Below, piece after piece: positions 25,654-39,029 of a stretch of 64,000 nt of DNA (position 1 is its first letter; every line of letters begins with the position of its first letter). The translations under genes were made by a program, and so were the position numbers. Source of the DNA: a phage. The notes below the pieces were generated by a model. The model made no database searches, was not told the DNA's origin, and was given only the letters and a program-made list of their open reading frames with translations. The stretch is from the sequence record PZ445440.1, one strand, 5' to 3'.

Positions 25654-27096
25654 TTAAAATTTTAACTCATTGGCTAAGCTATCTAGGTCAGCACGTGTTG
25701 CTTTGGCTTTACCTACGCGTTCCGTACGATTCACCTCTGCCTGACGCATCTGAGCACCTGCGTTTTCATTTACTGTGTTAGGTGTGTTCATGCCTTCTTG
25801 CTCAATCTCAATCCATTTCTGGTTGCCTTTACGTACACCCATCAGGAATTTATTCCACTTATTCTTATCACCATATCGTGATTTGATTTGTTTGATAAGT
25901 TGTTGTTCAGCTTGTGCAAGTTCTTCGGTTTCAATTACAGCCAACATGAAATCTGCCGTTGCTGGTAAACCTGCTGATTCTGCGATATCACTCATGTTCA
26001 TGTCTGAAGCATCCCATGCTGCACGTCCTACTTGAGCTGCAGTCCATAGAACTGTTTCAGATTCTACTGCTAATGCACGAAGTTCTTCTGCGATAGCTTT
26101 AACTAATGTGTAGCTATTTTCAGTGTAAACTCTGATACGACAAGACCCGCAAATACCTAAGTAATCAACCATGATTACAGATGGCACAAAGTTCTTCTTA
26201 AGTTTTAACTCATTAAGCAATGCACGAAATGTATTAGCATTAGCTCCACCAGTAGGATACTGTTTAACTACTAAACGTCCTAATGTGGATTTTGAACGCC
26301 ATTTTTCCATCTTGGCTTTATATTCAGCATAAGATACGTTACCATCATCAATATCATCAAGTGATACGTCAAGCATGTTTGCATCTATACGCTTAGCACA
26401 AACTTCTTCAGCCATTTCCATGGAAATATAAAGAACATTATGACCTGTTTGAAGATAATCTGCAGCAAGTGAACAAAGGCCTAAAGATTTACCAACGTTA
26501 ACACCTGCCATTAAAACATTCAGTGTACCGGTTTCAGCACCACCTTTAGTGATTTTATTCAGAATGTTTAATTTGAACGGGACCTTACGTGCTTTGTTCA
26601 GATAAGAAAGCCAGCGTGCTTCATAGTCTTCCATCCAGTCATGCCCAACATAACTATCAAACGAAATTGAAAGTGCTTGACGCATAATATCAGGAATAGC
26701 TCCTACGTCAGGCATTTTCTTGTTACGTTGTTCTGGAGGTAGTTCAGCATTAGACTGAATCTCAATGATTTTGGATGTAGCATTATACATCGCTTTTTGC
26801 TGGACATATTTCTCAGTTTCTTTAACCAACCATTCGTGGTCTTCAGGAGTATCAGCCAATTTTTCAATTAGGTCTGAAGTTCCTTTATATTCGGCTTCAG
26901 TTAAAGAACTGTTATCTAAAGCCACCTTTAATGCATTGATAGATGGCATTGCATTATATTCGTTAACGTGGCTCTTTATAATTTTAAAGACATTTTTTGC
27001 CGGTCCACGCTCAAAATACTCAGAATCCATATAAGGCCAGACCTTAGAAAAATAAGCCTGGTCGTATACTAGATGAGACAAAATAATTTCTACCAC
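25654..27096 (-). CDS. 41: replicative DNA helicase gp41 (DnaB family)
   Basis: 480 aa (T4 gp41 475 aa as I recall); Walker A GVNVGKS, DnaB-like motifs; synteny. Confidence 0.9.
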   Translation of the reverse strand: MVEIILSHLVYDQAYFSKVWPYMDSEYFERGPAKNVFKIIKSHVNEYNAMPSINALKVALDNSSLTEAEYKGTSDLIEKLADTPEDHEWLVKETEKYVQQKAMYNATSKIIEIQSNAELPPEQRNKKMPDVGAIPDIMRQALSISFDSYVGHDWMEDYEARWLSYLNKARKVPFKLNILNKITKGGAETGTLNVLMAGVNVGKSLGLCSLAADYLQTGHNVLYISMEMAEEVCAKRIDANMLDVSLDDIDDGNVSYAEYKAKMEKWRSKSTLGRLVVKQYPTGGANANTFRALLNELKLKKNFVPSVIMVDYLGICGSCRIRVYTENSYTLVKAIAEELRALAVESETVLWTAAQVGRAAWDASDMNMSDIAESAGLPATADFMLAVIETEELAQAEQQLIKQIKSRYGDKNKWNKFLMGVRKGNQKWIEIEQEGMNTPNTVNENAGAQMRQAEVNRTERVGKAKATRADLDSLANELKF

Positions 27097-27105
27097 GATA
27101 ACTCC

Positions 27106-27468
27106 TTAAAAGAATTTAAATTTTTTCTTGGTCCGTTCATTAAAAGCTTGTTGTACTTGCATTGTAACACATTTTTCAACATGCGGTGCAAGTTCTGCTT
27201 TTCTGTCCTGGTCAAGAACTGCAAAGTCCATTACGATTTTACCATCAACCCAGTCTAGTTTTGTAATATAGACTATATGATGGGAACCGTCTTCAAGTGT
27301 AATCAGAATCTCTTGAATGACATTTTCCATTGCTGAACGGACAATTTTAAGAGATTCATTAAACACTCGTTCTTTGCGAATGTCTTCCCCTTCCGAAGAA
27401 GGGGATTCATCAACGATTTCTAGATTTAAATCATCGAGATTATTCATCGAAATCTTCCATTTCGTCAA
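27106..27468 (-). CDS. 40: gp40-like protein by position (120 aa)
   Basis: Located between uvsX and gene 41 as T4 gene 40; sequence identity not verified. Confidence 0.45.
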   Translation of the reverse strand: MTKWKISMNNLDDLNLEIVDESPSSEGEDIRKERVFNESLKIVRSAMENVIQEILITLEDGSHHIVYITKLDWVDGKIVMDFAVLDQDRKAELAPHVEKCVTMQVQQAFNERTKKKFKFF

Positions 27469-28612
27469 GGTCGTTTTCTATATCTGCTGCAGATGGAGCA
27501 TCAGAAGTTTTAACTGGAACCTTAGTTGTTGCTTTGCAATTAATAAGGTCGTTAACAGCGTCATCAACTTCTTTAATAGAAGAGATAGCACCTAGTTTAT
27601 ATTTGGTTTCAATTGCATCTCGGAAAGGTTTGTGTTTAAACAACGGTCCCCAGAATTCTACACAATCAGTAGCTTTAGCACGCCACGATTTCTCTTCACG
27701 AATCATTTCACCTGTTTCTTCGTCAAGGAATTCACGAGCATACCAACCAGCTTTAGGCTTAACTACAAAACCAATTTCAGTTGCCATTTCTAACAAGCCA
27801 CTGAATGGATCAATACCGCCATCAAAATTAACCGTGATTGGGAAAGTAGATTTCTCTTTAACTGTACGAGATTTTTCTGCTTTCAACGTGAAGTCATAAC
27901 CGGTCAATTCTGTACCTTCTTTAACCTGACGTTTAGAGATAAAAAATACCGTGTTGGCAGAGTAAAGAATACCTGTACCACCACCCATAATCTCTTTAGG
28001 ATATAGTCCGCCGATTTCCATTGCTGTATGGTTGATTGCAACACACGGAATATCTTTAATAGTCAGATAAGGAGTCACAATGCGGAACAGAGATTTAAGT
28101 GCCTTAGCACGAGACATATCACCTACAACTTTTTCGTTCAACGCATCTTCGGTTTCTTTCTTAGATGCAGTATTACCGATTGAATCGATAAAGATAATAA
28201 CTTTATCACCGCGTTCAATAGCGTCAAGCTGATTAGTCATATCGACTTTAAGTTGTTCGACAGACTGAATTGGTGTATGAACTACGCGGTCTAAATCAAC
28301 ACCCATCGAACGGAAGTAAGATTCTGAAGCACCGAATTCTGAGTCATAAAACAAACAGATCGCATCTTTATATTTCTTCATATACGCTGCGACCATAGTT
28401 AGTCCAAACAATGTTTTAAAATGTTTAGAAGGTGCAGCAAAAATAGTCAAGCCTGATTGCAATCCTGCATTCAGAGCACCACCTAGTGCAATATTCAACA
28501 TCGGAATACGAGTAGGGACTTCATCACGATTATTAAACAGCTTAGACTTAGTCAAGTCTGCAGTCATTTTAGAAGTAGAAGCTTTAATCAGACGAGATTT
28601 TAAATCAGACAT
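27440..28612 (-). CDS. uvsX: UvsX recombinase (RecA/Rad51 family)
   Basis: 390 aa; MSDLKSRLIKASTSK... and WYAREFLDEETGEMIREEKSWRAK match T4 UvsX from memory. Confidence 0.95.
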   Translation of the reverse strand: MSDLKSRLIKASTSKMTADLTKSKLFNNRDEVPTRIPMLNIALGGALNAGLQSGLTIFAAPSKHFKTLFGLTMVAAYMKKYKDAICLFYDSEFGASESYFRSMGVDLDRVVHTPIQSVEQLKVDMTNQLDAIERGDKVIIFIDSIGNTASKKETEDALNEKVVGDMSRAKALKSLFRIVTPYLTIKDIPCVAINHTAMEIGGLYPKEIMGGGTGILYSANTVFFISKRQVKEGTELTGYDFTLKAEKSRTVKEKSTFPITVNFDGGIDPFSGLLEMATEIGFVVKPKAGWYAREFLDEETGEMIREEKSWRAKATDCVEFWGPLFKHKPFRDAIETKYKLGAISSIKEVDDAVNDLINCKATTKVPVKTSDAPSAADIENDLDEMEDFDE

Positions 28613-28665
28613 TGTATTTTTCCATAGGCATCATTATATTTTACTCATGTTTAAAAGATAAGATG

Positions 28666-28693
28666 ATTATATACTAAGGGTTATACAGCATTT
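28666..28693 (-). promoter_or_regulatory. candidate MotA-dependent middle promoter for uvsX
   Basis: Minus AAATGCTGTA (MotA-box-like, one mismatch to TGCTTtA) followed 12 nt later by TATAAT. Confidence 0.35.
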
Positions 28694-28710
28694 AAAACTT
28701 TAAATGGCTC

Positions 28711-29259
28711 TTAACGAGCCCATTTGATGATTTCTGTAATCAAATCATTACGTTCGCTTGCATTAAATCCTATAACTTTGTTAGCACCATCATGATTAAG
28801 TAATTGATACGTTTGGATTTTGTTATGAATTGCAAACTCTTCAAAATGTGAAATGACTGTATTAAAACCGAATGAAGACAAAGTAATAAGGTCGTCTTCA
28901 AAACTTTCAGTCATTTCGTTACGTGTTAAAATAATTGTGAACACATCATGGTTTTGGCAAAGACGAATATAATCCTGTTCATAAACGTCAAGAACCGAGT
29001 CCGCATCTTGTCGAATACGTCCATAAACCCAGTTACTAATATACCCACGGTCTAACAGATAAATCTTAGTAGGGTCTAAATAATTCAACATCGTTTCGAA
29101 ACAGCCAACTTCGTTTCGAGACTTAACATCGAAACGCCCATCAACTGTTCGTTTAGGGAAATCAATCTTTACATATCTTTCACTAATTTCCATTACGTCA
29201 TTAATGAAAGTTGTTTTACCAGCATTATCCGGGCCGTCTACTAAAATAATTTTAGCCAT
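28711..29259 (-). CDS. P-loop nucleotide/nucleoside kinase-like protein (thymidylate-kinase-like fold)
   Basis: 182 aa; Walker A ILVDGPDNAGKTT and a DRGY motif (YLLDRGYISNWVYG) reminiscent of dNMP kinases; GAGGAA SD; sits in the T4 beta-gt slot. Confidence 0.6.
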   Translation of the reverse strand: MAKIILVDGPDNAGKTTFINDVMEISERYVKIDFPKRTVDGRFDVKSRNEVGCFETMLNYLDPTKIYLLDRGYISNWVYGRIRQDADSVLDVYEQDYIRLCQNHDVFTIILTRNEMTESFEDDLITLSSFGFNTVISHFEEFAIHNKIQTYQLLNHDGANKVIGFNASERNDLITEIIKWAR

Positions 29260-29260
29260 T

Positions 29261-30160
29261 TTATTCCTCGATTACGACATCTTCGTATTTAGGTATATTA
29301 TACGGTGAAGAAATTAAAGCATTAAAGTAGATGAACTCACCAAGACCTGGATGGAATACTTCTTCAGGATTTTCGAAATATTGAATCTTCGGACGTCCTT
29401 TAAGAATTTGATAGTACTCAGTTTTAGTTGGTTTAAAAATTCGAATCAGCGCTTCTTCAGGATACTTATTTCTGTCGAAGCTATTATTTGGATCGGTTAT
29501 ATAAAGCGGTTGACCTAATTGAATTGCACATTCAACCACTTGTTCAAAACGATAGCATGGGTCACTAATTCGAAATGGATGAAAAATACCATCTAGATGA
29601 ATAGGAGCCAAATCACCTACAAGACGCTGCATGATGGAAGGACGTATAACTTTCTGGGTTATGATAATCTTATTACCATCGGCACCTGCGTTAACCAGCA
29701 CTTCTTTTTGACGTTCATTCAACACAGTAGTTTGAAGTGAACGATTAACAGACAACATATCGGTTTTTAAGAATTCGTCAATATAAAAACGTGGTTTATT
29801 AGGGTCTGCAGTGATATTGAAATTGAATTCTACATCAAAAGCGCCGTCATATCCAGTGATATCTGTGATTAGAAAATCACAATCATAATAAGCAATTAAT
29901 GAATCAACCACAAATTCATTTTCAGACCAGAAATATTTACGAGTGTTATACGCGTTATCTTTATACCATAATGGAACAAACTTAAATTCTGGGAAAAGAC
30001 GTTCACATTCTTTAATATCAGATGCATTACGTGGATATGTAATCACATCACCCGGATTAGCACGGTGCAAATGAAGTTGGAAGTTGCCATCCTTAAGGAT
30101 AGCATACTGTCCAGTTTCATAAGACCGCATACTCAAGATAGGTACGCGGAAAATAGCCAT
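29261..30160 (-). CDS. hypothetical protein (299 aa), candidate novel DNA sugar-transferase
   Basis: No recognisable motifs; translationally coupled to gene 42 (stop/start overlap); occupies the beta-gt position. Confidence 0.6.
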   Translation of the reverse strand: MAIFRVPILSMRSYETGQYAILKDGNFQLHLHRANPGDVITYPRNASDIKECERLFPEFKFVPLWYKDNAYNTRKYFWSENEFVVDSLIAYYDCDFLITDITGYDGAFDVEFNFNITADPNKPRFYIDEFLKTDMLSVNRSLQTTVLNERQKEVLVNAGADGNKIIITQKVIRPSIMQRLVGDLAPIHLDGIFHPFRISDPCYRFEQVVECAIQLGQPLYITDPNNSFDRNKYPEEALIRIFKPTKTEYYQILKGRPKIQYFENPEEVFHPGLGEFIYFNALISSPYNIPKYEDVVIEE

Positions 30161-30876
30161 TAGTCAAGGAATCCTTTAACATAATCAAAATCACGTTCAA
30201 ACACATGGGCACTTACCATGGTATGAGTATAATCACCAACTTCTACACCACATTCGTTAGCGATATAATGAAGTAATTTTCCTTGGAGATAAAAATCCAA
30301 CTGCATAACAACAGCACAGTTCTGAGAACGCATATGACAGTGGGTATAAAGCTTACCATCACGAATATAATAAGTCACTGAGTCAGTACATGGATATTCA
30401 AGCGTTTCGTCTGAATCAAGCAAAGCCTGATCAGAACTTTCTAGAATTTGGAACACAACTCTTCGAGAGTTAGGCTTCTCTTTAAGTTCTTTTAGAAGAG
30501 CTGGTAATTGGGCCGCAATGCGAGGACCGTAGAAAGTGTTGAAGTTCGCAGGCAAAGCATCTGATTTTGGTTTAGAAATAAATTTAGCGACATTAGGATA
30601 TGCCTTAAACGCTTCTTCTGCATCAGTACCACCAGAAATCATAAACTTCCAGAAGTCTTCGGCATATTCATAAGAGATGCGGTTAATACGTGGGTCGGTC
30701 ATTTTGAATGATGATGGAGTGTCAACAACTACTGTCATAGACCCAATTTCATTACAACGTCCAATACGAGAATCAGTTACGAATTCCGGGTTTTCTAAAA
30801 TTTCACGATTGACTGCTTTAAATGCGGTTTGAAAATCTGCGGCTTTGATATATTTCATTGTGTTATGTTTTCCCAT
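30160..30876 (-). CDS. 42: dCMP hydroxymethylase gp42 (thymidylate synthase family)
   Basis: 238 aa; thymidylate-synthase-like region HCHMRSQNCAVVMQLDFYLQ; synteny upstream of the uvsX block. Confidence 0.7.
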   Translation of the reverse strand: MGKHNTMKYIKAADFQTAFKAVNREILENPEFVTDSRIGRCNEIGSMTVVVDTPSSFKMTDPRINRISYEYAEDFWKFMISGGTDAEEAFKAYPNVAKFISKPKSDALPANFNTFYGPRIAAQLPALLKELKEKPNSRRVVFQILESSDQALLDSDETLEYPCTDSVTYYIRDGKLYTHCHMRSQNCAVVMQLDFYLQGKLLHYIANECGVEVGDYTHTMVSAHVFERDFDYVKGFLD

Positions 30877-30918
30877 GTTTACCTCAATACAATTTATTAT
30901 ATACTCGATTCGTAAAGC

Positions 30919-31158
30919 TTATTTGAATTTCTTGGCAGTGTTGATATACCGTAAAGCTTCAGCATCGATACTTCCAAGAACACTATGAAGAAATGCATCA
31001 GCGTAGTATTCTAATTGAACAGGTTCTTTAATCACTTTAGCCGCTTTGGTTTCAAACAGGCCCATCAGGGCCTTTTTAAGAATTTGTTCGTTGCTGTTAA
31101 TTTTAATAGTCAAAATCTCTTCATTAAGTTGGTGGTTAAAAGTTTTTCTAGAAATCAT
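30919..31158 (-). CDS. hypothetical protein (79 aa)
   Basis: ORF with ATGA overlap to upstream gene. Confidence 0.55.
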   Translation of the reverse strand: MISRKTFNHQLNEEILTIKINSNEQILKKALMGLFETKAAKVIKEPVQLEYYADAFLHSVLGSIDAEALRYINTAKKFK

Positions 31159-32315
31159 TCCGGGTACCTCAAAGCGTCGTCAGAGTTAGTTATATCAATA
31201 ATAGATATAGAATTTTCTGATAACCCATTTTTAGATAACTGACGTTTATAATATCTTTCACAATATGTACACGTCGTCCCGCAGATTTCATTAGCACAAT
31301 CGAAATCTGGATGTCTGAACCACCTTTTTTCTAAAAAGCCATCTAACAAAGAGGTTTCAATATTTACTGTATGTGAAAACTCAGTTTCGTTTTCAAGAGT
31401 GAAAATAGTCTCTAAAGGCTTCCACAGTTCTAACAAATTACCTTCAAACTTTTCAGAAGCGTATGCTTCAAGAACTTTCAAAATGTAGTCTGTGCTACCT
31501 GTACGTCCTGAAACTTTGAATTGAGTGATACCAATATCATTATAAAGTTTCAAATCTTGGGGACGAACAAAACGAGTTCTCAACCAGTTAAATGGGTCTG
31601 TATCACGAGCTTTAATACAGTGCTGCATTGGATACCCGTTTAAGGATTTAGCATCATCAGCTGTAACATCAGTACTATGGAAAATATAGCAAGAGTCACG
31701 ATAGCTACAATGTGTTGTATACCCTTTACCAGCATTAGAACAGAACTCATTTACAAGAACTTCAAATATTATATTGTTCTTATTGCAAAACTCTGCTGCA
31801 CGCTTCAGGAAAGAAACTGAACGGTTCTTATGAATTCCACAGCAGACCTTTTTGATATTATATTGGTCATGCAAGTATTTGATTTGAGTTACAGCATCGA
31901 CATGTAGAATTGTTGAAACTTCAATCTCAATGTCTTTATTGACTTCACGAACAATTTCCATAACAACAGGGTTAGCGATAGTAATACGCCATACGCCTAT
32001 TGACCAAAGATACTGAACATAATCCTGAATAGCTTTCTTCTTCCACTCAACTAGTTCTCTTTTTGAACCAGGATTTATCGTGTTGAGTGTATAGTTAAAG
32101 CAAATACCTAATTCGTTACAACGTTTAACGTAATCTTCTAACATCTTTTTGTCAACGTCAGGAAGCCTAAAATCAGGTCTGGCTGCTACAAAAGCCATTT
32201 CTCTTGTAGAGCCGTATACTTCATTTATCAAGCTATTAGGATAAGTTTTATTGAGCTCTACGATTTTATCAAGAAGAGCTAAATCAAAATTCGTTCCGAT
32301 TTTAAAAGTATTCAT
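31155..32315 (-). CDS. Cys-rich protein of unknown function (386 aa); weak peptidase-U32-like resemblance
   Basis: Cys clusters (EVLVNEFCSNAGKGYTTHCSYRDSCY; CANEICGTTCTYC); loose resemblance to the U32 signature region; not verifiable without a profile search. Confidence 0.6.
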   Translation of the reverse strand: MNTFKIGTNFDLALLDKIVELNKTYPNSLINEVYGSTREMAFVAARPDFRLPDVDKKMLEDYVKRCNELGICFNYTLNTINPGSKRELVEWKKKAIQDYVQYLWSIGVWRITIANPVVMEIVREVNKDIEIEVSTILHVDAVTQIKYLHDQYNIKKVCCGIHKNRSVSFLKRAAEFCNKNNIIFEVLVNEFCSNAGKGYTTHCSYRDSCYIFHSTDVTADDAKSLNGYPMQHCIKARDTDPFNWLRTRFVRPQDLKLYNDIGITQFKVSGRTGSTDYILKVLEAYASEKFEGNLLELWKPLETIFTLENETEFSHTVNIETSLLDGFLEKRWFRHPDFDCANEICGTTCTYCERYYKRQLSKNGLSENSISIIDITNSDDALRYPE

Positions 32316-32371
32316 TTTTTTGCATCTCGCGTTAATTGATGCGATGGTTTTTGCAGGTCTTACTTAAATTA

Positions 32372-32758
32372 TTATAGATTCGGTTTATATGATTTAAATG
32401 TTTCGAATTCGCCTTTATTCATAAGAGCTTTGAATTCGTCAGGACGCATAGCTTTGTCGTCGATAATCCAATCATATACTGGTTTATGTGTTAGCAAATT
32501 ATGGTACTTCAATCCAATGTTTGCTAAGTTCTGAATCAGACTTGGGAGAATGTCGATTGCTATACGACCAGGACCTACTGACTTCATACCGCGAGCAGTG
32601 TAAAGCGTTATGGTATGCCCTGCATCATACAGGGCATTAATGGCAGACACCATTTCGACGTCTGGTTTGAAGTTCACATAATCACGGTTGTTATTCCACT
32701 CTGTTATACAATCATCGACATCAAAACAAAGATTAAGCATGTTTTCTACACGGTGCAT
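32372..32758 (-). CDS. HAD-superfamily phosphatase (small, cap-less)
   Basis: Motif I FDVDDCI, motif II ITLYTARG, motif III/IV K...DWIIDDKA; ATG overlaps the stop of the upstream NTase/kinase gene. Confidence 0.7.
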   Translation of the reverse strand: MHRVENMLNLCFDVDDCITEWNNNRDYVNFKPDVEMVSAINALYDAGHTITLYTARGMKSVGPGRIAIDILPSLIQNLANIGLKYHNLLTHKPVYDWIIDDKAMRPDEFKALMNKGEFETFKSYKPNL

Positions 32759-34443
32759 TAGATTCGTTCCCATTGATGAGTGATATCGCCACCGATTGGA
32801 CGATAGGAAACACCAGTTTCTTTATCAGTTAGTACCCATTTACCAGGATTTTTTGTAATAAGAGTAGCCGTTACAGGTTCTGCTACGTCATAACTAATAG
32901 AGCCGTCTTGAAGTACACGGCCCATGTTACGTAATTGCTTAGTCAGAAGTTCCATACCTTTATAATATGCGGCTACCGCTTTAAGTGGATTATTCTTGAA
33001 ATAACCACCTAATGCAATCCAGATAATTGCCACCGCCAAATGATGATACTCGTTAAACGAACTCATCTTTCCATATTTGTAAATTAATGGATTGATGTTA
33101 ATAGTCACATTACAAGTTGTTTCATCAATAGTAAACTGTCCCCAGGTCGGATTAGCATTGAATTCATCATAACCTGAAACAGCGTAAAGCACTTTAGCTT
33201 CATCGTACAATTTTGGCCCGTAAATCTTGGTTTCACCAAAATATCCACGAGGGTCGATAAACTTGACTTCGCCATTATCAGTAATCATAGTATTACTGAA
33301 GTTCGGGTCACCATGAATAACAGAGTACTGTCCCTGAGAACGGTTATGATAACGAATAAGGTGTTCTAAAGCTTGTTTCAACATTGGCTTCAGACGTCCA
33401 ATCTTAGTGTAGTTCACATGTGTGATTTTACCAAATGAATCAATCAATGGTTGAATGCTTTCACAACGATCAATAACTTTCGTATAGAATTCTTTAGTGA
33501 AATCACGACGGACAGTTTCAGGACTTACAAAATAAGTGTCTGTGCTGAATTTCAGTGCATCTAAAATTGCATCAACAATTTGTGGACGAGCAAGACTTGA
33601 TTTGGATTTAATATATTCAAATGCCGGCTTACCTTTAATGCGTTCCATTTCAAAGTTATTTTCATTAACAGAAACTAACTGAGGAACTGAATCTGATTTC
33701 ACTTTCAAGTACCACGAAATCTCATCTTTCTGAAGAGCTCGACCCTGTTCGGTTAATGCGAATTTAGTTACAGTTTCTTCACCAATTTCAACTGCATTAA
33801 AACTACGATTAAGTTCACGAACTTCATGAGCTTTTTCAAGTTTAGGCATATCACCTAAATCAATTAGATTCATAAGCTCTGATTTATTGAATGCGCCGCT
33901 GTAAAGGAATTCTACGAAATCACGTCCTTTGCAGTATTCATGAATTTCCTCATCAGTAGAACCCATATAGAATTCCCAGTCTTTGAACTGATAAATTCCT
34001 ACAACATTACCGCCTGTTGCACCTACATTAGTGATATTTTCACCGTCGAAATTATATCGACATTCGTCACCCTTAACATAGATTGCGTTAACATTCCAAG
34101 ACCATGAACCAAAATCAGGAATAATATCACACCAGTTAACAATTACGTTATGGCCGTCTAAATCTTTGTGTAATTTAGCAAGAGCATAAGCAGAACCATA
34201 CGCTTCATCAACTGTACGAATAGTCACATTGAACCCTTCTTGCTCACAATAAGCTCGAACAGTTTCAGCAAATTTTGAATGAACTACTACAATAATTTCA
34301 TCTGCGCCAAGGTCAGAATAAATTGTATACAAATTGCTCAGAATAGTGTCTTGTTTATAGTTAACAAGCACCTTAGGAATATGATGCGTTATTGGATACA
34401 AACGAGTTGCCAGTCCAGCACCAAGAATAACAGCTTTTTTCAT
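32758..34443 (-). CDS. bifunctional sugar-1-phosphate nucleotidyltransferase / anomeric sugar kinase (LicC-like N-domain + APH/choline-kinase-like C-domain)
   Basis: 561 aa; N-terminal MKKAVILGAGLATRLYPITHHIPKVLV (NTP-transferase signature); C-terminal VIHGDPNFSNTMI (Brenner HGDxxxxN) and FIDPRGYFG. Confidence 0.8.
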   Translation of the reverse strand: MKKAVILGAGLATRLYPITHHIPKVLVNYKQDTILSNLYTIYSDLGADEIIVVVHSKFAETVRAYCEQEGFNVTIRTVDEAYGSAYALAKLHKDLDGHNVIVNWCDIIPDFGSWSWNVNAIYVKGDECRYNFDGENITNVGATGGNVVGIYQFKDWEFYMGSTDEEIHEYCKGRDFVEFLYSGAFNKSELMNLIDLGDMPKLEKAHEVRELNRSFNAVEIGEETVTKFALTEQGRALQKDEISWYLKVKSDSVPQLVSVNENNFEMERIKGKPAFEYIKSKSSLARPQIVDAILDALKFSTDTYFVSPETVRRDFTKEFYTKVIDRCESIQPLIDSFGKITHVNYTKIGRLKPMLKQALEHLIRYHNRSQGQYSVIHGDPNFSNTMITDNGEVKFIDPRGYFGETKIYGPKLYDEAKVLYAVSGYDEFNANPTWGQFTIDETTCNVTININPLIYKYGKMSSFNEYHHLAVAIIWIALGGYFKNNPLKAVAAYYKGMELLTKQLRNMGRVLQDGSISYDVAEPVTATLITKNPGKWVLTDKETGVSYRPIGGDITHQWERI

Positions 34444-34484
34444 GTTGTGGTCCTCATTGGTAAGTAGAAGTATTGTACACTATT

Positions 34485-34628
34485 CTAGTTAAAGCATTCA
34501 TACTTCGCTTGTAGTCCAATCATAATCCATCCAATTACAAGTGTTGGAATCATTACTGGAGCCGTTAAGCTCCAGTAGATAGTCATGACAAGCATCAATA
34601 GTAAAAGTCCTATTGTTATTGTTTTCAT
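34485..34628 (-). CDS. small membrane protein (47 aa)
   Basis: Hand translation MKTITIGLLLLMLVMTIYWSLTAPVMIPTLVIGWIMIGLQAKYECFN; ATGA overlap with the isomerase stop. Confidence 0.4.
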   Translation of the reverse strand: MKTITIGLLLLMLVMTIYWSLTAPVMIPTLVIGWIMIGLQAKYECFN

Positions 34629-35260
34629 TGTTCGCCTCGTAACATGGCACCTAGTGCGCCGCCTGGATGGAACTTAAGGAAATCATTAGAGGTAAATCCA
34701 CGTTCAGACGAAAGGTTGATAGCGAACGTATCGATAAGCGCTAACAACAATGTAGTAGACATTGTCGGAGCTAAAGAGTTCTCGTCAACTTCTACCGCGA
34801 TACCGGTACAGAACGTATAATCAAAAAGAGCTTCGTATTCTTGTGGAATGTCAGGGTTACAATGTAACAGAATCTGTTTAACCTGAGGACGAATCATACG
34901 AAGATGTTTAGCAACACCTATCATTTCTTCAGTCTTACCAGAACGACTGATGTGAACTAATACATCATTAGGTGCAATAAATCCTGCGTCGCCATGAGAA
35001 TAATGCCCGGTGTTCAAGTACATACTCGGGATACCTAGTGAAGCAAAAGTCTCGGAAGCTTTAGTTGCGATATTAGCATTCTTACCAACACCTGTAATAA
35101 TTACACGACTTTCGTAATTACTCAGTCCAGGGCGACGAAGAGTTTCAAGAATAGCATTATATCGGGCAGGGTTTTGACTAATTATTTTAGCCATAGTGGC
35201 AAGAGATGAAGCTTGTTTTACGATTGCGTCAATAGCGATAGTGATTGGTGTAGTTTTCAT
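34625..35260 (-). CDS. D-arabinose-5-phosphate isomerase, SIS domain only (KdsD/GutQ/KpsF-like, no CBS pair)
   Basis: 211 aa; strong similarity to E. coli KdsD SIS domain from memory: GVGKNANIATKASETFASLGIPS, HGDAGFIAPNDVLVHISRSGKTEE, LAPTMSTTLLLALID, HPGGALG. Confidence 0.85.
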   Translation of the reverse strand: MKTTPITIAIDAIVKQASSLATMAKIISQNPARYNAILETLRRPGLSNYESRVIITGVGKNANIATKASETFASLGIPSMYLNTGHYSHGDAGFIAPNDVLVHISRSGKTEEMIGVAKHLRMIRPQVKQILLHCNPDIPQEYEALFDYTFCTGIAVEVDENSLAPTMSTTLLLALIDTFAINLSSERGFTSNDFLKFHPGGALGAMLRGEQ

Positions 35261-35300
35261 ATTTCTCTCATTTAATTAGTTGGCCATCCTTGGCATTATA

Positions 35301-38012
35301 TCAAAAATCAAACATATCGAACAGAGATGCTTTCTTCTCGTAATCGAGTTTCGCTGCTGATGTGAATCCTTCAAGTGGTTTAATAAATGTCTTCTCAAGG
35401 AGAACAGTGTAGTCCATCCAATGAAGTACATCATCTTTGATTAAATCAGTGATTTCCGTACCAGAAGGCCATGCGATACATTTATCACCGAACGGGTTTC
35501 CATCACGTAAAGGCAGAACGTATACCTTTTCGCCTTCTACAACTTGTGGAGCATCAATATTACCTTTGATAGCTCGGTTATATGTCAGAATTCCACGAAT
35601 ATGGAATGGGCATTTAGGTCCTGGATATCCACCTACATCATATTTAGCAATGTTATTCGCAGAAGATACCGACGCGATGCTAATATAATTCAATTGACGG
35701 AATTCTTTTTCAAACTCTTTAAAATATTCTTGTAATGATTCTTCACCTTCTTGAAGCATACGACGAATACATTCTTTAAGAGCTTTCTGTACTGCTTTAG
35801 GGGTCGAAGATTTCTGAGTTTCTAGACCCATGATTTTGAGTTTAGGCTCAGCGTAACGAGTACCTTCCATATCCCACACGTTTAATGCATAACGTTTCTT
35901 ACCAGTCCAGAATCCACCAATACCTTTAGAACCGAGCGGAGGACCAGCGATAGCTTCTCGGTCCATGAACATTAAGTGTTGTTTATTGTTCATGTATTCA
36001 CACATTTCACGGAAACCTCTATCAATAGCAGGTTCCATACGTTCACGTGCAAACTTATCTAAGAAGTCTACCCAATGGTTGGTATCACGGAATTTAGATT
36101 CACCAACCTTATCGATAATTTTATCAGCAGATACGTAAATAGAGTCGGTATCACCATAAAGAACGAAAGCTTCACCTTCTGTACCACAAACTTCATTCAG
36201 ATATTCATTAACTTTACGTTCAATCCACTGTAAAGCCATTTGCCCAAATGTTGTGATTGCAGTAGCATTACGCAAATCATAATAACGGAACCAAACGTTT
36301 CCAAGTGCACCATAAAGTGAGTTGATAAGCAATTTACGGTTAATTTGTGCAGTCATACCTGCAACTTCAGTACGTTGAGCTCTAAACAACATTTCATTAA
36401 GAGATTTAGCAGACAACTTTTTAATCTTTTCTTTAATCTCATCACTGAAGTCGAAACGATAATCAACATCTAATGGTTCGTCAACAGAAAGATTAGGATT
36501 ATGCAATGCCTCTTTAATTATTTCACCATTACGTTGAGCTGCAAGCATGTAACCTTTATGTTCTTTACGTTGATTAAAGACCTTAGTGATTTCAGTTGGA
36601 ACTACACCATCACGGTCTTTATAATACATCATGCCGTTAGGAGAGCAACTGTACACATCTGAAGGACGTTCAGCGATTGCGTTAATATAATCATGCAGTG
36701 GAGCTACTTTAAACGTTCCTGCTATTGTTTCCGGGCTAATATTCACTTGGCGAATAATACTTGGATACAGAGATGTAAGGTCGAAACTCATTACATATTT
36801 GTATCGATTTGGAATAGGTTCCTTAACAAAAGCGCCAGGATAAGGTTGAACCGGATGAGAACGACCTTGTGGAATCACCTTGTTCTGCTCTTTAAGGCTA
36901 TTAAAAATAATAGCATCCCATGTTTTAATTGGGCTAAACACAGATTGAATCTGTATCTTAGCATAATAACCCATGTCCAAACTCAAGTTGATGAACTGAC
37001 GCTTAGCATCAATTTGCAATACACGATACACGTCGATAATGTTATAAGAAATATATCGTTGGTGATTGCTTTCACGAAGCTTAGAAATAGGGCCGTCATA
37101 TTTCAGTTTACCGACGTTCAATTCAAATTCTGAAATGTAATCCAGAGAATACGACGGTTGATTGGTAAAAGAGAATTTTTTGTAAAGGTCAATGTAATCA
37201 AGAACAGAGATACCGAACAATGTAATGATTTCACGAGAACCATACATGTTTTCGATAACTTTAACACGAGTTTTACGATGTGGTGATAAACGTTTCGCAG
37301 TAGATTCGCCAAAAATATTCTTGATTCTGTTATACACATATGGAATATCAAATGACTCAACGTTCCATCCAGTCAAAATGACAGGAGTTTTCTGTTGCCA
37401 GAAGTTGAGATATTCCATCAACAATTCTTTTTCGTTATCGAACGGCATATAAACAATTTTGTCGATAATTTCGGATGGAACTTCATCACCGCCTTGTTCT
37501 TGAAGCTTAGCAGCGATTTCAATAGACCATTCTTCTACATTACCATATGGAGAATTCAATAGATCAAATACGTAGAACCTGTCGTCAATTGAGTCATAAT
37601 GGGTGATAGCATCAATCGGATGTTTTGCTTGTGACGGCTCAGGGAACCCATCCGGAGATGTTACTTCGATGTCGAAGTTAGCCACACGAATTTTTGTATG
37701 GTCGTATTTGATTTCATAGTTATAAGTGTCAGACAAATACGCTAATTTGAAATCGTCCATGCCAAGTGCTTCAAGTCCGATATCTTCCATGCGTTTAATC
37801 CATTGTGAGGCATCACGCATATTAGCGAACAACTTACGAGTACACGGCTTACCGTAGATATCGAAATATTTCGTAGCCTGACTTTCTGGACAATGAGCAA
37901 ACAGTGATGGTTTATATTCTACTTCACGAGTACGTTCACGGCCATTAGAATCGATGTAACGTTCAAAAATTGAATCACCAATCTGTTCAACCGTTAAGTA
38001 AAATTCTTTCAT
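35301..38012 (-). CDS. 43: DNA polymerase gp43 (family B, 3'-5' exonuclease)
   Basis: 903 aa; exo motifs FDIEV, polymerase motifs DxxSLYPS and YGDTDS; sequence matches the RB69 polymerase from memory. Confidence 0.97.
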   Translation of the reverse strand: MKEFYLTVEQIGDSIFERYIDSNGRERTREVEYKPSLFAHCPESQATKYFDIYGKPCTRKLFANMRDASQWIKRMEDIGLEALGMDDFKLAYLSDTYNYEIKYDHTKIRVANFDIEVTSPDGFPEPSQAKHPIDAITHYDSIDDRFYVFDLLNSPYGNVEEWSIEIAAKLQEQGGDEVPSEIIDKIVYMPFDNEKELLMEYLNFWQQKTPVILTGWNVESFDIPYVYNRIKNIFGESTAKRLSPHRKTRVKVIENMYGSREIITLFGISVLDYIDLYKKFSFTNQPSYSLDYISEFELNVGKLKYDGPISKLRESNHQRYISYNIIDVYRVLQIDAKRQFINLSLDMGYYAKIQIQSVFSPIKTWDAIIFNSLKEQNKVIPQGRSHPVQPYPGAFVKEPIPNRYKYVMSFDLTSLYPSIIRQVNISPETIAGTFKVAPLHDYINAIAERPSDVYSCSPNGMMYYKDRDGVVPTEITKVFNQRKEHKGYMLAAQRNGEIIKEALHNPNLSVDEPLDVDYRFDFSDEIKEKIKKLSAKSLNEMLFRAQRTEVAGMTAQINRKLLINSLYGALGNVWFRYYDLRNATAITTFGQMALQWIERKVNEYLNEVCGTEGEAFVLYGDTDSIYVSADKIIDKVGESKFRDTNHWVDFLDKFARERMEPAIDRGFREMCEYMNNKQHLMFMDREAIAGPPLGSKGIGGFWTGKKRYALNVWDMEGTRYAEPKLKIMGLETQKSSTPKAVQKALKECIRRMLQEGEESLQEYFKEFEKEFRQLNYISIASVSSANNIAKYDVGGYPGPKCPFHIRGILTYNRAIKGNIDAPQVVEGEKVYVLPLRDGNPFGDKCIAWPSGTEITDLIKDDVLHWMDYTVLLEKTFIKPLEGFTSAAKLDYEKKASLFDMFDF

Positions 38013-38045
38013 TTAATTTCCTTTAGACGAGTTATTGTCTTTTGT
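38013..38045 (-). promoter_or_regulatory. candidate gp43 translational operator (RNA hairpin AGAC-AAUAACUC-GUCU adjacent to SD)
   Basis: Minus RNA AAGACAAUAACUCGUCUAAAGGAAAUUAAAUG: 4-bp stem, 8-nt loop, then SD AAGGA and the gp43 AUG. Confidence 0.45.
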
Positions 38046-38072
38046 TTGTTGGATGAACTTATTATACTCCAA

Positions 38073-38090
38073 ATGGGACCGAAGTCCCAT
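38073..38090 (-). terminator. UUCG-tetraloop hairpin between regA and gene 43 (terminator or RNA stability element)
   Basis: Plus atgggac-cgaa-gtcccat, 7-bp stem; weak U-tract; immediately followed (in transcript direction) by a TATAAT box. Confidence 0.35.
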
Positions 38091-38094
38091 TGCT

Positions 38095-38463
38095 TTAATT
38101 ACCAATTGTATATTTTGCTTTCAAAGTCCAGTCATCTTTCTGTTTAAAAGAGATAACACGGAAGTTATTAGTCAGGCTAAATAGATCTTCACGAGCAGAG
38201 TCTTCAATAACAATCAATCCCCAGTCTTCAAGCAACTGGGCAATCGAATCACGTCGCTGATAGTCTTCACCATCGATATCAACTTGACGTCCGTCCATAC
38301 GCAACATTTCTTTAAAGTGGACGATGTAGTATTTACCTTGCTTTTGGAGGATATGACAGGACTGATAAAGAACTTTATCCTTGTTATTAGCGATGCCCAT
38401 ACGGGTCAGAGTCTCTTTGACTTTCAGAAAATCTTCTGGGTTCTTCAATTTAATTTCGATCAT
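38095..38463 (-). CDS. regA: RegA translational repressor
   Basis: 122 aa from MIEIKLKNPEDFLKVKETLTRMGIANNKDKVLYQSCHIL...; matches T4 RegA from memory. Confidence 0.85.
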   Translation of the reverse strand: MIEIKLKNPEDFLKVKETLTRMGIANNKDKVLYQSCHILQKQGKYYIVHFKEMLRMDGRQVDIDGEDYQRRDSIAQLLEDWGLIVIEDSAREDLFSLTNNFRVISFKQKDDWTLKAKYTIGN

Positions 38464-38465
38464 TT

Positions 38466-39029
38466 TTACCATTCCAATGCTAATTTTTTAAATTGTTTTT
38501 GTTCTTTCACATTTTTTGTAACTTCTTTGAGAAACTCATCAGTGACCATTGCCTTCAGTTCTTTAAGGACTATTGGCAGCTTGTTATTTTTTTCAAGGAG
38601 CCGTTTATACTCGGTGGCATCATTCATGTTGATTGTGTAATGTTTCATCAACAGTTTGATAACTAGTAACTCTGAAGTGTCTTCGACTAGTTTAGCCCAT
38701 TTAGAGAATCGTCGACCACGCGGAATTGCCGCCATCATATAGTTGAAGTGCGCTTCATCACTTAATTCAGAACCGACCAAGTTCATCATGTAAACTGCGG
38801 GCATACATTCTGGAAACTGGGACAATGAGTTCTCAACCATAAATTTTGAGTAGTCGACCTGAGCAATTGACATAGATTTCTTTTCATTAATAGCATTAAT
38901 GATTTTAAAGAATTCGTTCTCAGGTTTTTCTTTAAACATGTCAGCACATTTTTGAATCGCATCAGCGTCATTAGACTTCCATGCGATTTGGTGCTCGTTA
39001 AGTTGGACGTCATCATCAAATAAGTTCAT
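38466..39029 (-). CDS. 62: clamp-loader small subunit gp62
   Basis: 187 aa (T4 gp62 187 aa as I recall); immediately downstream of gene 44. Confidence 0.8.

Follow-up and report, generated by a model that had tools for sequence, protein, structure and literature searches.

A predicted stand-alone D-arabinose-5-phosphate isomerase in the DNA-modification locus of an RB69-type phage

The locus between gene 43 and uvsX

The window (the whole stretch of 64,000 nucleotides analysed, record PZ445440.1) is 100% identical to Escherichia phage ChristianSchoenbein (Bas46, Mosigvirus). At 34625–35260 its minus strand carries an ORF with an ATG start and a TGA stop that encodes a 211-aa protein with one SIS domain (bas46_0148; RB69 gp55; PHROG 5670), predicted to be a D-arabinose-5-phosphate isomerase (API) interconverting D-ribulose 5-phosphate (Ru5P) and D-arabinose 5-phosphate (A5P). 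Residues 51–181 match Pfam SIS (PF01380, E 9e-10), and a Pfam search of the protein gave no match to CBS (PF00571). Only 13 residues remain between H198 and the C-terminal end (HPGGALGAMLRGEQ, then the stop), and in an alignment two cellular homologs (P0119 and P0120) extend from this point into CBS pairs. A preliminary description of this DNA had reported a SIS protein at exactly these positions, lacking CBS domains and ending where E. coli KdsD continues, all of which is borne out. Of the motifs it listed, HGD (89–91), ISxSGxT (as ISRSGKT, 104–110) and HPGGALG (198–204) are present, while the fourth, GxGKS, is actually GVGKN. The Ser of cellular APIs is replaced here by Asn61, which is nearly invariant across the phage family, and the alignments suggest a family-specific change in the phosphate loop.

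The same description placed the gene in a replication module. It does lie between gene 43 and uvsX, but this is the plastic region of T-even genomes in which Thomas 2018 (PMC6024577) places the T4 dCMP hydroxymethylase gene and beta-gt; the location is the usual T-even DNA-modification locus. Homologs of a 5-hydroxy-dCMP synthase, a bifunctional kinase/pyrophosphorylase and a HAD phosphatase are all present between uvsX and gene 43, together with a predicted DNA arabinosyltransferase. All genes with coordinates given here are on the minus strand. Directly downstream of the isomerase is a small ORF for a hydrophobic protein of 47 aa (34485–34628), which matches PHROG 3610 (no assigned function, E 1e-26) and gave no Pfam match. 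The stop codon of the isomerase and the start of this ORF overlap in ATGA (caATGAaa), and the two may therefore be translationally coupled.

The next gene (32758–34443) encodes a bifunctional enzyme of 561 aa, a homolog of RB69 gp52:53 and an analogue of AfhE in phage HY126. It matches Pfam NTP_transferase at residues 3–99 and, weakly, APH, Fructosamin_kin and EcKL at about 308–409; there are also NCBIfam nucleotidyltransferase matches, and the translation contains the kinase motif HGDPNFSN...IDPRG. By analogy with the functions relayed in PMC13326640, the C-terminal APH/choline-kinase-like domain would be the A5P 1-kinase and the N-terminal sugar-1-phosphate nucleotidyltransferase would make UDP-D-arabinofuranose (UDP-D-Araf). 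A 133-aa HAD-type phosphatase follows (32372–32773; PHROG 1238), analogous to AfhF and 99% identical to RB69p051 (gp51), with PDB matches to 9iqw (E 8e-88) and 1xpj (5e-10). Its putative reaction, by the same analogy to what PMC13326640 relays, is arabinose-1,5-bisphosphate to arabinose-1-phosphate.

Further along are a 386-aa peptidase-U32-family protein (31155–32315; RB69 gp50 homolog; Pfam PF01136, E 7e-11; PHROG 5757), entered as ‘sugar or heterocycle reductase’ for gp50 in Table 1 of Lee 2026, and a 238-aa thymidylate-synthase (TS) homolog (30160–30876; Pfam Thymidylat_synt), the 5-hydroxy-dCMP synthase for the acceptor base. The latter is about 99% identical to PDB 9iqc, 9ir2 and 9iqu, and the activity of RB69 gp48 has been shown experimentally (PMC13326640). 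The PDB entries 9iqw and 9iqc probably derive from phage HY126; since the HAD phosphatase and the TS homolog of the window are near-identical to them, HY126 biochemistry probably applies directly. A putative first DNA arabinosyltransferase of 299 aa (29261–30160) is homologous to RB69 gp46:47, which was modelled as a GT-B arabinosyltransferase (PMC13326640). Its residues 1–181 are 98% identical to RB69p047, and searches of Pfam and of PDB sequences gave no match. The last of the group (28711–29259), at the position of RB69 gp45, is a 182-aa thymidylate-kinase-like nucleotide kinase (PHROG 761; GenBank annotation; Lee 2026, Table 1) that probably phosphorylates 5-hydroxy-dCMP. Rfam found nothing in 27000–39000, and a scan for promoters and terminators gave sites no more frequent than in shuffled sequence.

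Family assignment among SIS enzymes

The isomerase matches the PHROG 5670 profile with E 3.2e-116 (residues 3–211 against profile positions 2–210 of 210), and 276 phage records contain full-length homologs (24–100% identity), which together far exceed chance. Among NCBIfam models the best is KpsF/GutQ (TIGR00393; 110.8 bits, E 8e-32), covering model positions 2–153 of 268, that is, the SIS half only. KdsD (NF008141; 105 bits, E 4e-30) and GutQ (NF008581; 79 bits, E 3e-22) follow, while other SIS classes score at most 27 bits. The TIGR00393 cut-off of 203.7 bits is not reached and tandem CBS domains are lacking; both the low score and the partial coverage are due to the missing C-terminal CBS pair.

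Structural databases give the same picture. A PDB sequence search, in which no SIS entry is near-identical, matches 3etn, 5uqi and 2xhz, and a profile built from 69 homologs ranks 5uqi (c3406 of CFT073; 1.5e-47), 3etn (Bacteroides fragilis API; 3e-44) and 2xhz (KdsD; 6e-38) far ahead of the next enzyme class, represented by the PHI-like 1jeo (4e-10). The single-SIS Listeria protein 3fxa matches with 1e-12 by sequence and 1.3e-27 by profile. A single-sequence AlphaFold2 model was discarded (pLDDT 39.9) and replaced by one based on the 69-sequence alignment (pLDDT 95.7). With this model the top Foldseek matches are 2xhz, 3etn, 5uqi and 3fxa (target-normalised TM 0.78–0.91), the best being 2xhz (0.91, rmsd 1.7 Å), and the fold is the flavodoxin-like alpha/beta SIS fold. 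The alignments to KdsD, GutQ and KpsF proposed as a check in the preliminary description thus hold in both NCBIfam and PDB, and its choice of family is supported by best matches, in sequence and fold alike, that are APIs, including two solved enzymes without CBS domains.

The functional residues of E. coli KdsD, which we take from the mutagenesis literature to be K59, H88, E111, E152 and H193, correspond to K60, H89, E112, E157 and H198 of the isomerase, the first four mapped through 2xhz numbering and H198 through the alignment with cellular homologs. All five are invariant in the 69 homologs (33–98% identity).

Other SIS classes were considered and rejected. GmhA and GlmS had been named as the matches that would speak against an API. 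GmhA appears in none of the match lists (no NCBIfam match at E ≤ 0.1, no chain in the PDB sequence or profile searches, not among the top 50 of Foldseek). GlmS is far weaker: the isomerase has a single rather than a tandem SIS, and GlmS/GFAT structures reach a Foldseek E of about 1e-6 (TMq 0.53–0.64) against 4e-13 for APIs. For PHI, the HxlB model gives 14.6 bits against a cut-off of 160, and 1jeo stands at 4e-10 against 1e-47 for the API. The case against GmhA, GlmS, PHI and the RpiR-type sensors is made by matches weaker by over 17 orders of magnitude and by the conserved catalytic residues. As judged from these comparisons, the isomerase clearly groups with the API set of KdsD/GutQ/KpsF, the CBS-less c3406 and the B. 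fragilis enzyme.

Relatives, distribution and fusion proteins

The closest named relative is RB69 gp55 (RB69p055, NP_861745.1), which is 96% identical (8 substitutions in 211 residues) and likewise lies next to gene 43 and the UDP-arabinose genes. It belongs, with gp83 of the Acinetobacter phage DLP3 and PHROG 5670, to the same family as the isomerase, with no difference of substance. The API reading is already known for these genes, both as annotation and in print, and the preliminary view of the gene as unusual does not stand. The GenBank record of Bas46 labels it ‘putative phosphosugar isomerase involved in UDP-arabinose biosynthesis’, RefSeq names RB69p055 arabinose 5-phosphate isomerase, and PHROG 5670 is labelled ‘arabinose 5-phosphate isomerase’ (category ‘moron, auxiliary metabolic gene and host takeover’); older annotations of the phage gene read ‘similar to polysialic acid capsule expression protein GutQ’. 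Thomas 2018 (PMC6024577) and Lee 2026 assign it step 1 of UDP-D-arabinofuranose synthesis (Ru5P to D-Ara5P), and PMC13326640 proposes RB69 gp55 as an API producing Araf5P. In the accessible literature, He 2026 and Mahler 2025 aside, there is no enzyme assay, knockout or structure of the phage isomerase or a close homolog, and a transposon-mutagenesis preprint using Bas46 has no essentiality data on the gene.

Among cellular proteins, the nearest in architecture are the CBS-less APIs, c3406 (PDB 5uqi and 5vhu) and the B. fragilis enzyme (3etn). Like the phage isomerase they have about 200 aa, consist of SIS only and finish just past HPGG; target-normalised TM scores between the isomerase and 5uqi or 3etn are 0.84–0.86 at 27–30% identity, and the PDB title of 5uqi describes c3406 in complex with A5P. 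CBS domains are dispensable for API activity, as these two enzymes show. Enzymes of this type form homotetramers in which the active sites lie between subunits. The B. fragilis API is inhibited by CMP-Kdo; the phage isomerase is perhaps insensitive to this feedback. The CBS-less cellular APIs serve Kdo or capsule synthesis, whereas the proposed task of the phage isomerase is to supply a nucleotide-sugar pathway that decorates DNA. E. coli KdsD, GutQ and KpsF share with it the catalytic domain, the five residues and the predicted Ru5P/A5P reaction, but consist of SIS plus two CBS domains (the architecture of KdsD is treated in PMC10448790) and differ in metabolic destination.

In Mosigvirus and Acinetobacter phages the isomerase gene always adjoins arabinosylation genes, and the neighbourhood of isomerase, kinase/nucleotidyltransferase and HAD phosphatase recurs in Acinetobacter phage Acj61, from a different subfamily. 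The unrelated jumbo phage PAU has an annotated isomerase in the vicinity of unannotated ORFs of 576 and 140 aa. About 100 phage records have the kinase/pyrophosphorylase homolog and no SIS homolog; such T4-like genomes include Dhakavirus JS10 and Klebsiella, Proteus and Vibrio phages. This means that the cluster does not strictly require the isomerase step, and from its distribution the gene looks accessory. The two clusters of this kind that were inspected (JS10 and Klebsiella phage kv_tblp5) lack the isomerase and keep the phosphatase and hydroxylase genes. JS10 has a 166-aa protein where the isomerase would lie; a diverged SIS was considered for it and rejected, there being no SIS signal in Pfam. 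The peptidase-U32-family gene is present in kv_tblp5 and missing in Acj61 and JS10, so it too is not part of every arabinosylation cluster.

Five proteins of 890–955 aa (P0204, P0209, P0211, P0212 and P0228) combine HAD, SIS, NTP_transferase and kinase domains in a single chain. One of them has a SIS part with 32% identity to the phage isomerase (E 1e-28), likewise without CBS and with the same residues kept, and the kinase/nucleotidyltransferase part is 29–35% identical to the 561-aa product of the neighbouring phage gene. The HAD domain, by contrast, is of a different subtype (PF13419/PF00702) and has no detectable similarity to the 133-aa phage phosphatase. The contigs carrying these fusions resemble those of giant viruses or eukaryotes, not of phages; a Butyrivibrio version was reported by Thomas 2018 (PMC6024577). 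The whole route from Ru5P to NDP-D-arabinose seems to occur on one polypeptide in giant-virus-like contigs and one protist transcriptome, a hint that D-arabinofuranose activation has uses far outside phage DNA modification.

Proposed role in DNA arabinosylation

The D-arabinose chemistry to which the preliminary description pointed is correct for these phages. RB69 and DLP3 DNA bears D-arabinofuranosyl groups of determined absolute configuration, the sugar on RB69 DNA having been identified as D-Araf by GC-MS and NMR (PMC13326640). Bas46 DNA is reported to contain doubly arabinosylated 5-hydroxycytosine, 5-arabinose-arabinose-hydroxy-cytosine (bioRxiv 10.64898/2025.12.19.695335; PMC12923530); the acceptor base is, according to current literature, 5-hydroxycytosine and not hydroxymethylcytosine. 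In the near-identical phage HY126 both downstream enzymes were reportedly assayed, and PMC13326640 describes AfhE as combining A5P kinase with UDP-D-arabinose pyrophosphorylase and AfhF as a phosphatase dependent on Mg. According to PMC13390438, characterisation of the pathway is still incomplete and the precursor of the arabinose unclear.

The most probable reading (about 0.85) is that the 211-aa protein is a stand-alone, CBS-less API (EC 5.3.1.13) of the KdsD/GutQ/KpsF lineage that feeds DNA arabinosylation. Ru5P would be drawn from the host pentose-phosphate pathway and isomerised to A5P by the usual enediol aldose-ketose mechanism, with catalysis by His89 and His198, the latter presumably contributed by a neighbouring subunit as in KdsD, and with the phosphate bound by the Ser/Thr loops SRSGKT and APTMSTT. 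With O5 carrying the phosphate, the only ring that A5P can form is a furanose. The next gene product would then phosphorylate C1, the HAD phosphatase would take off the 5-phosphate, and the nucleotidyltransferase domain of the 561-aa protein would make UDP-D-arabinofuranose. Phage glycosyltransferases would move D-Araf to 5-hydroxycytosine already in phage DNA, giving two arabinoses per cytosine in Bas46, and this would shield the DNA against host nucleases.

The scheme resembles the ADP-heptose route (GmhA, HldE, GmhB), which employs a SIS isomerase, a bifunctional kinase/nucleotidyltransferase and a HAD phosphatase. The logic is identical: an aldose phosphate is phosphorylated at C1, dephosphorylated by a HAD enzyme in between, and activated as a nucleotide sugar. 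The components are of distinct types, however, with a KdsD-type rather than GmhA-type isomerase, an APH/choline-kinase-like rather than PfkB-like kinase, and a nucleotidyltransferase that is GlmU/RmlA/MurU-like. This indicates convergence of pathway design rather than whole-pathway homology. The shared logic probably explains the widespread mislabelling of the phage HAD gene as ‘phosphoheptose isomerase’.

Other explanations have to be weighed against an API that serves DNA modification. The protein could be an active SIS aldose-ketose isomerase for another sugar phosphate (G6P/F6P, hexulose-6-P or heptose-P), A5P being supplied only by host KdsD and GutQ. Annotation of single-domain SIS proteins as API has proved wrong before, and the strongly matching Listeria 3fxa-type protein is reportedly a glucose-6-phosphate isomerase and not an API; the Asn61 substitution and the many arabinosylation-type clusters without a phage SIS gene would also fit. 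Yet 3fxa falls 10–20 orders of magnitude behind the API structures, all five KdsD residues are kept, and the fusions join this very type of SIS to the kinase/pyrophosphorylase homolog. With the adjacent HAD and TS homologs near-identical to structures probably from HY126, and with D-arabinose the only sugar found on RB69-type phage DNA (PMC13326640), another substrate is improbable.

A true API acting on the host, in Kdo/LPS or capsule precursor supply or as a pentose-phosphate drain, would be a generic auxiliary metabolic gene, in keeping with its PHROGs category and the old GutQ annotation. Such a role is more doubtful still, given the constant association with arabinosylation genes in two phage groups, the physical link of SIS to kinase/pyrophosphorylase and phosphatase in the fusions, and a neighbourhood in which kdsA, kdsB and kdsC were not found. 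Finally, the weak matches to the SIS domains of RpiR, MurR and HexR, and the dispensability of the gene in some clusters, might be read as signs of a non-catalytic sugar-phosphate-binding module, sensor-like in the manner of RpiR/MurR, that serves the 561-aa enzyme as a regulatory subunit or as a scaffold. This is the least probable of the alternatives, since the regulator matches lie more than 30 orders of magnitude below the API, the protein has no HTH or other partner domain, and the invariance of the catalytic His, Glu and Lys in sequences as little as 33% identical would be hard to explain for a mere binder.

With an API feeding arabinosylation as the preferred reading, the isomerase is the proposed entry point through which host Ru5P is diverted to DNA arabinosylation, a modification that lets RB69-type phages evade restriction enzymes, the Brig1 glycosylase and some CRISPR systems. 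Given how patchily the gene is distributed, one may ask whether the enzyme is needed at all in a host that already makes A5P. With about 63,000 cytosines per genome, two arabinoses on each and a burst of 100–200, some 1.3–2.5e7 arabinose units are required per infected cell. Host Kdo demand is estimated at a few million per generation, which this exceeds. The enzyme may be a flux booster atop host KdsD and GutQ, with which the roughly 100 T4-like genomes that keep the kinase/pyrophosphorylase homolog without a SIS gene are consistent. The combined proposal, that an optional, deregulated isomerase tops up the host enzymes and that D-arabinofuranose activation extends beyond phage DNA modification, is a tentative one, falling somewhat short of even odds. 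In the flux-booster role, the isomerase would allow an infected cell to make upward of 1e7 arabinose units within one latent period.

The isomerase gene and its SIS class

The gene for the predicted isomerase occupies 34625..35260 on the minus strand; in the ORF list of the window it begins with ATG and encodes 211 aa (ATGAAAACT...GGCGAACAATGA). A Pfam search of the protein finds a single SIS domain (PF01380, E 9e-10, residues 51–181) and no CBS domain, and its C-terminus lies 13 residues past His198, where cellular homologs run on into two CBS domains. The preliminary description of a stand-alone SIS protein without CBS domains is therefore accurate. Among the motifs it listed, HGD, ISRSGKT and HPGGALG are present, but the proposed GxGKS actually reads GVGKN. 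A Shine-Dalgarno-like run (GAGAG) is found 5 nt ahead of the ATG. Upstream of the isomerase gene, 35 nt from its start, an extended -10-like element (TGATATAAT, 35295–35303, minus strand) overlies the DNA polymerase stop codon; it was not called in a generic promoter scan, which gave no more promoter-like sites than shuffled sequences.

Within NCBIfam, the protein matches KpsF/GutQ (110.8 bits), KdsD (105.3) and GutQ (79.2), other SIS families reach at most 27 bits, and GmhA is absent from the matches. The KpsF/GutQ score falls below the curated cut-off (203.7) because the match spans the SIS half alone (model positions 2–153 of 268). A single-sequence search of solved structures returns only four chains, each an arabinose-5-phosphate isomerase (API) or API-like SIS protein: 3etn (B. 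fragilis, 220 aa, 1e-24), 5uqi (198 aa, 2.5e-22), 2xhz (SIS domain of E. coli KdsD, 2e-18) and 3fxa (1e-12); none is near-identical to the phage protein. With a profile of 69 homologs these improve to 1.5e-47 (5uqi), 3e-44 (3etn), 6e-38 (2xhz) and 1e-27 (3fxa), the next class being the PHI-like 1jeo (4e-10), with RpiR/MurR sensors at ~1e-6 and GlmS-like proteins at ~1e-3. Foldseek, given an AlphaFold2 model built from the alignment (pLDDT 95.7, pTM 0.91), places 2xhz first (TMt 0.91, rmsd 1.7 Å), then 3etn and 5uqi (E ~1e-13 to 1e-12), the last entitled “E. coli CFT073 c3406 in complex with A5P”; the hits to regulators, PHI and GlmS/GFAT come after these, at ~1e-7 or weaker. The API class, rather than GmhA or GlmS, had been suggested from the sequence and is upheld by these rankings.

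Functional residues were mapped through the 2xhz alignment, whose numbering is verified by the K59A substitution, found at position 59 of the chain. Residues K59, H88, E111 and E152 of KdsD correspond to phage K60, H89, E112 and E157, while H193 of the HPGG motif aligns with H198; on the basis of mutagenesis, we take all five to be important for KdsD activity. Their phage equivalents are invariant in alignments of 19 and 69 sequences (33–98% identity), as are the Ser/Thr phosphate loops (S105, S107, G108, T110 and A164, P165). Asn61, in contrast, is a change specific to the phage family, cellular enzymes having Ser.

Over 32700–35300 the window is 100% identical to Escherichia phage ChristianSchoenbein (Bas46, a Mosigvirus; MZ501056.1, locus tags bas46_). 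Its GenBank record labels bas46_0148 as [quoted passage not shown], and gives the neighbouring genes as a phosphatase and enzymes of UDP-arabinose biosynthesis. The RB69 counterpart, RB69p055 (96% identity, 203/211), is annotated in RefSeq as “arabinose 5-phosphate isomerase; similar to ... GutQ”, and the 211-aa protein matches PHROG 5670 (“arabinose 5-phosphate isomerase”) over its full length, with E 3e-116. A homolog is encoded in 276 phage records, and many of those listed bear this name. A protein search gives about 120 clusters of 205–215 aa phage proteins (identity down to 42%), and beyond these CBS-containing KpsF/GutQ proteins with ~41% identity across the SIS domain.

The gene cluster and arabinosylated DNA

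The isomerase gene lies 40 nt downstream of that for a 903-aa family-B DNA polymerase (35301..38012), on the same strand, and the cluster continues on the minus strand toward uvsX. Next is a 47-aa ORF (34485..34628), its start overlapping the isomerase TGA stop as ATGA. Its product (MKTITIGLLLLMLVMTIYWSLTAPVMIPTLVIGWIMIGLQAKYECFN) is very hydrophobic, is conserved as PHROG 3610, and from its sequence looks like a small membrane protein amid a cytoplasmic sugar-nucleotide operon. The 561-aa protein (32758..34443) combines an N-terminal sugar-1-phosphate nucleotidyltransferase with a C-terminal APH/choline-kinase-like domain (motif HGDPNFSN...IDPRG). The gene for a 133-aa HAD phosphatase (32372..32773; PHROG 1238), which matches PDB 9iqw (“Capsule biosynthesis protein”, E 8e-88), overlaps its end by 16 nt. 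A peptidase U32-family protein follows (31155..32315; PF01136, E 7e-11), found in the Mosigvirus and Klebsiella phage kv_tblp5 clusters and absent from those of Acj61 and JS10. U32-family proteins (RlhA, TrhP) are required to hydroxylate C and U at position 5 in rRNA and tRNA, an intriguing property beside a 5-hydroxycytosine pathway. The RB69 homolog is entered only as “sugar or heterocycle reductase” (PMC13326640). Beyond a 79-aa ORF with no family match (30919..31158) lies a thymidylate synthase (TS) homolog recognized by Pfam (30160..30876), ~99% identical to PDB 9iqc, 9ir2 and 9iqu. RB69 gp48, at the same cluster position, is an experimentally demonstrated flavin-dependent 5-hydroxy-dCMP synthase (PMC13326640), and the GenBank name “dCMP hydroxymethylase” appears outdated. 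A 299-aa homolog of RB69 gp46:47 (29261..30160) and a thymidylate-kinase-like protein (28711..29259; PHROG match) complete the series.

Arabinose is present on RB69 DNA, ORF055c (the isomerase) and ORF53_52c (the 561-aa homolog) have been put forward as UDP-arabinose genes, and the module occupies the plastic gene 43-uvsX region, which in T4 holds beta-gt and the gene for dCMP hydroxymethylase (Thomas et al. 2018, PMC6024577). In Bas46 DNA, hydroxy-cytosine with two arabinoses has been reported (bioRxiv 10.64898/2025.12.19.695335; PMC12923530), and deletion of its arabinosyltransferase renders the phage sensitive to a defence system. The D-arabinose chemistry foreseen in the preliminary description is borne out; its view of the site as unusual is not, this being the T-even DNA-modification locus. 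According to the account of He et al. [quoted passage not shown] The four PDB entries are presumably HY126 proteins; as the HAD protein and TS homolog are near-identical to them, the HY126 biochemistry is likely to be valid here directly. The pathway was still called incompletely characterised in 2026 (PMC13390438), and no assay, structure or knockout of the isomerase was found in the literature searched, the primary HY126 and Bas46 papers lying outside its coverage.

Distribution and fusion proteins

The 561-aa protein is more widespread than the isomerase, having homologs in 374 phage records compared with 276 (Escherichia, 177 vs 137), and Klebsiella (25), Vibrio (17) and Proteus (7) are among the top ten organism names for the former only. 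Between gene 43 and uvsX, the T4-like phages JS10 (Dhakavirus, EU863409.1) and kv_tblp5 (PQ819476.1) carry the nucleotidyltransferase/kinase, HAD protein, nucleotide kinase, TS homolog and an ORF in the glycosyltransferase position, but no SIS gene. A 166-aa JS10 protein at the isomerase position gave no SIS signal. From this distribution, the isomerase appears to be an accessory first step; host A5P is presumably enough in phages lacking it.

Other genomes independently support a functional link between the isomerase and its neighbours. Acinetobacter phage Acj61 (Twarogvirinae) has the same arrangement: polymerase, isomerase, nucleotidyltransferase/kinase, HAD protein, TS homolog, glycosyltransferase, kinase and glycosyltransferases. 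PAU, an unrelated jumbo phage, has an annotated isomerase with a 576-aa unannotated ORF (gp215) and a 140-aa ORF nearby. For ORF53_52c, a PAU homolog with 24% identity has been reported (Thomas et al. 2018, PMC6024577). A search with the 561-aa protein also finds 890–955 aa proteins with the order HAD - SIS - NTP_transferase - kinase. In one (P0204), the SIS part aligns with the phage isomerase at 32% identity (E 1e-28) and closes with HPGGSLG, ten residues ahead of the nucleotidyltransferase domain. Judged by domain content, these proteins are a Rosetta-stone fusion of the putative pathway activities, predicted to hold the whole route from D-ribulose 5-phosphate (Ru5P) to NDP-D-arabinose in one chain. 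Examples are L004 (8001–10781; GCA_013558355.1, contig JACCDH010973257.1), L008 (5545–8283; ENA ERZ27280332) and P0211 from a slime-mould transcriptome (eukprot, Ceratiomyxa fruticulosa). The contigs resemble giant-virus and not bacterial DNA; among the neighbouring genes are ones for an HNH-containing MutS, RNA polymerase Rpb2 and Rpb10, SNF2 helicase, Ulp1-like peptidase C48 and asparagine synthase.

These fusions bear on the main alternative, that the isomerase is specific for a substrate other than Ru5P/A5P, for which we take the Listeria single-SIS protein of the 3fxa type to be a precedent. This is disfavoured, as API structures score ahead of 3fxa, the KdsD functional residues are kept, arabinose is the sole product sugar, and SIS is fused to other domains of the pathway.

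Proposed route and arabinose demand

The present analysis establishes the family, fold, residues and neighbourhood of the isomerase, and the literature establishes the product sugar and downstream enzyme activities. The isomerase itself would interconvert Ru5P and A5P through an enediol mechanism. A5P could close its ring solely as a furanose, so that 1-phosphorylation followed by 5-dephosphorylation would lead through arabinofuranose-1-phosphate (Araf-1-P) to UDP-Araf, with no need for a pyranose/furanose mutase. This design is like the GmhA-HldE-GmhB route to ADP-heptose, a likeness by convergence, which is probably why the HAD gene is mislabelled “phosphoheptose isomerase” in many phage records and PHROG 1238.

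A GC content of 37.1% corresponds to ~63,000 cytosines per 169-kb genome; with two arabinoses per cytosine and a burst of 100–200, an estimated 1.3–2.5e7 arabinose units are needed per cell. For Kdo, the estimated demand per generation is a few million. We attribute the presence of a phage-borne API, despite KdsD and GutQ in E. coli, to this arabinose demand, and speculate that an isomerase without CBS domains may be deregulated.

The sequence was read correctly in the preliminary description, and its API interpretation is supported. The isomerase was already known, from RefSeq (RB69p055), the Bas46 GenBank record, the 2018 paper and the 2025–2026 pathway papers on essentially the same phage; the only new points are its accessory distribution and the occurrence of four-domain fusions on contigs of giant-virus type.
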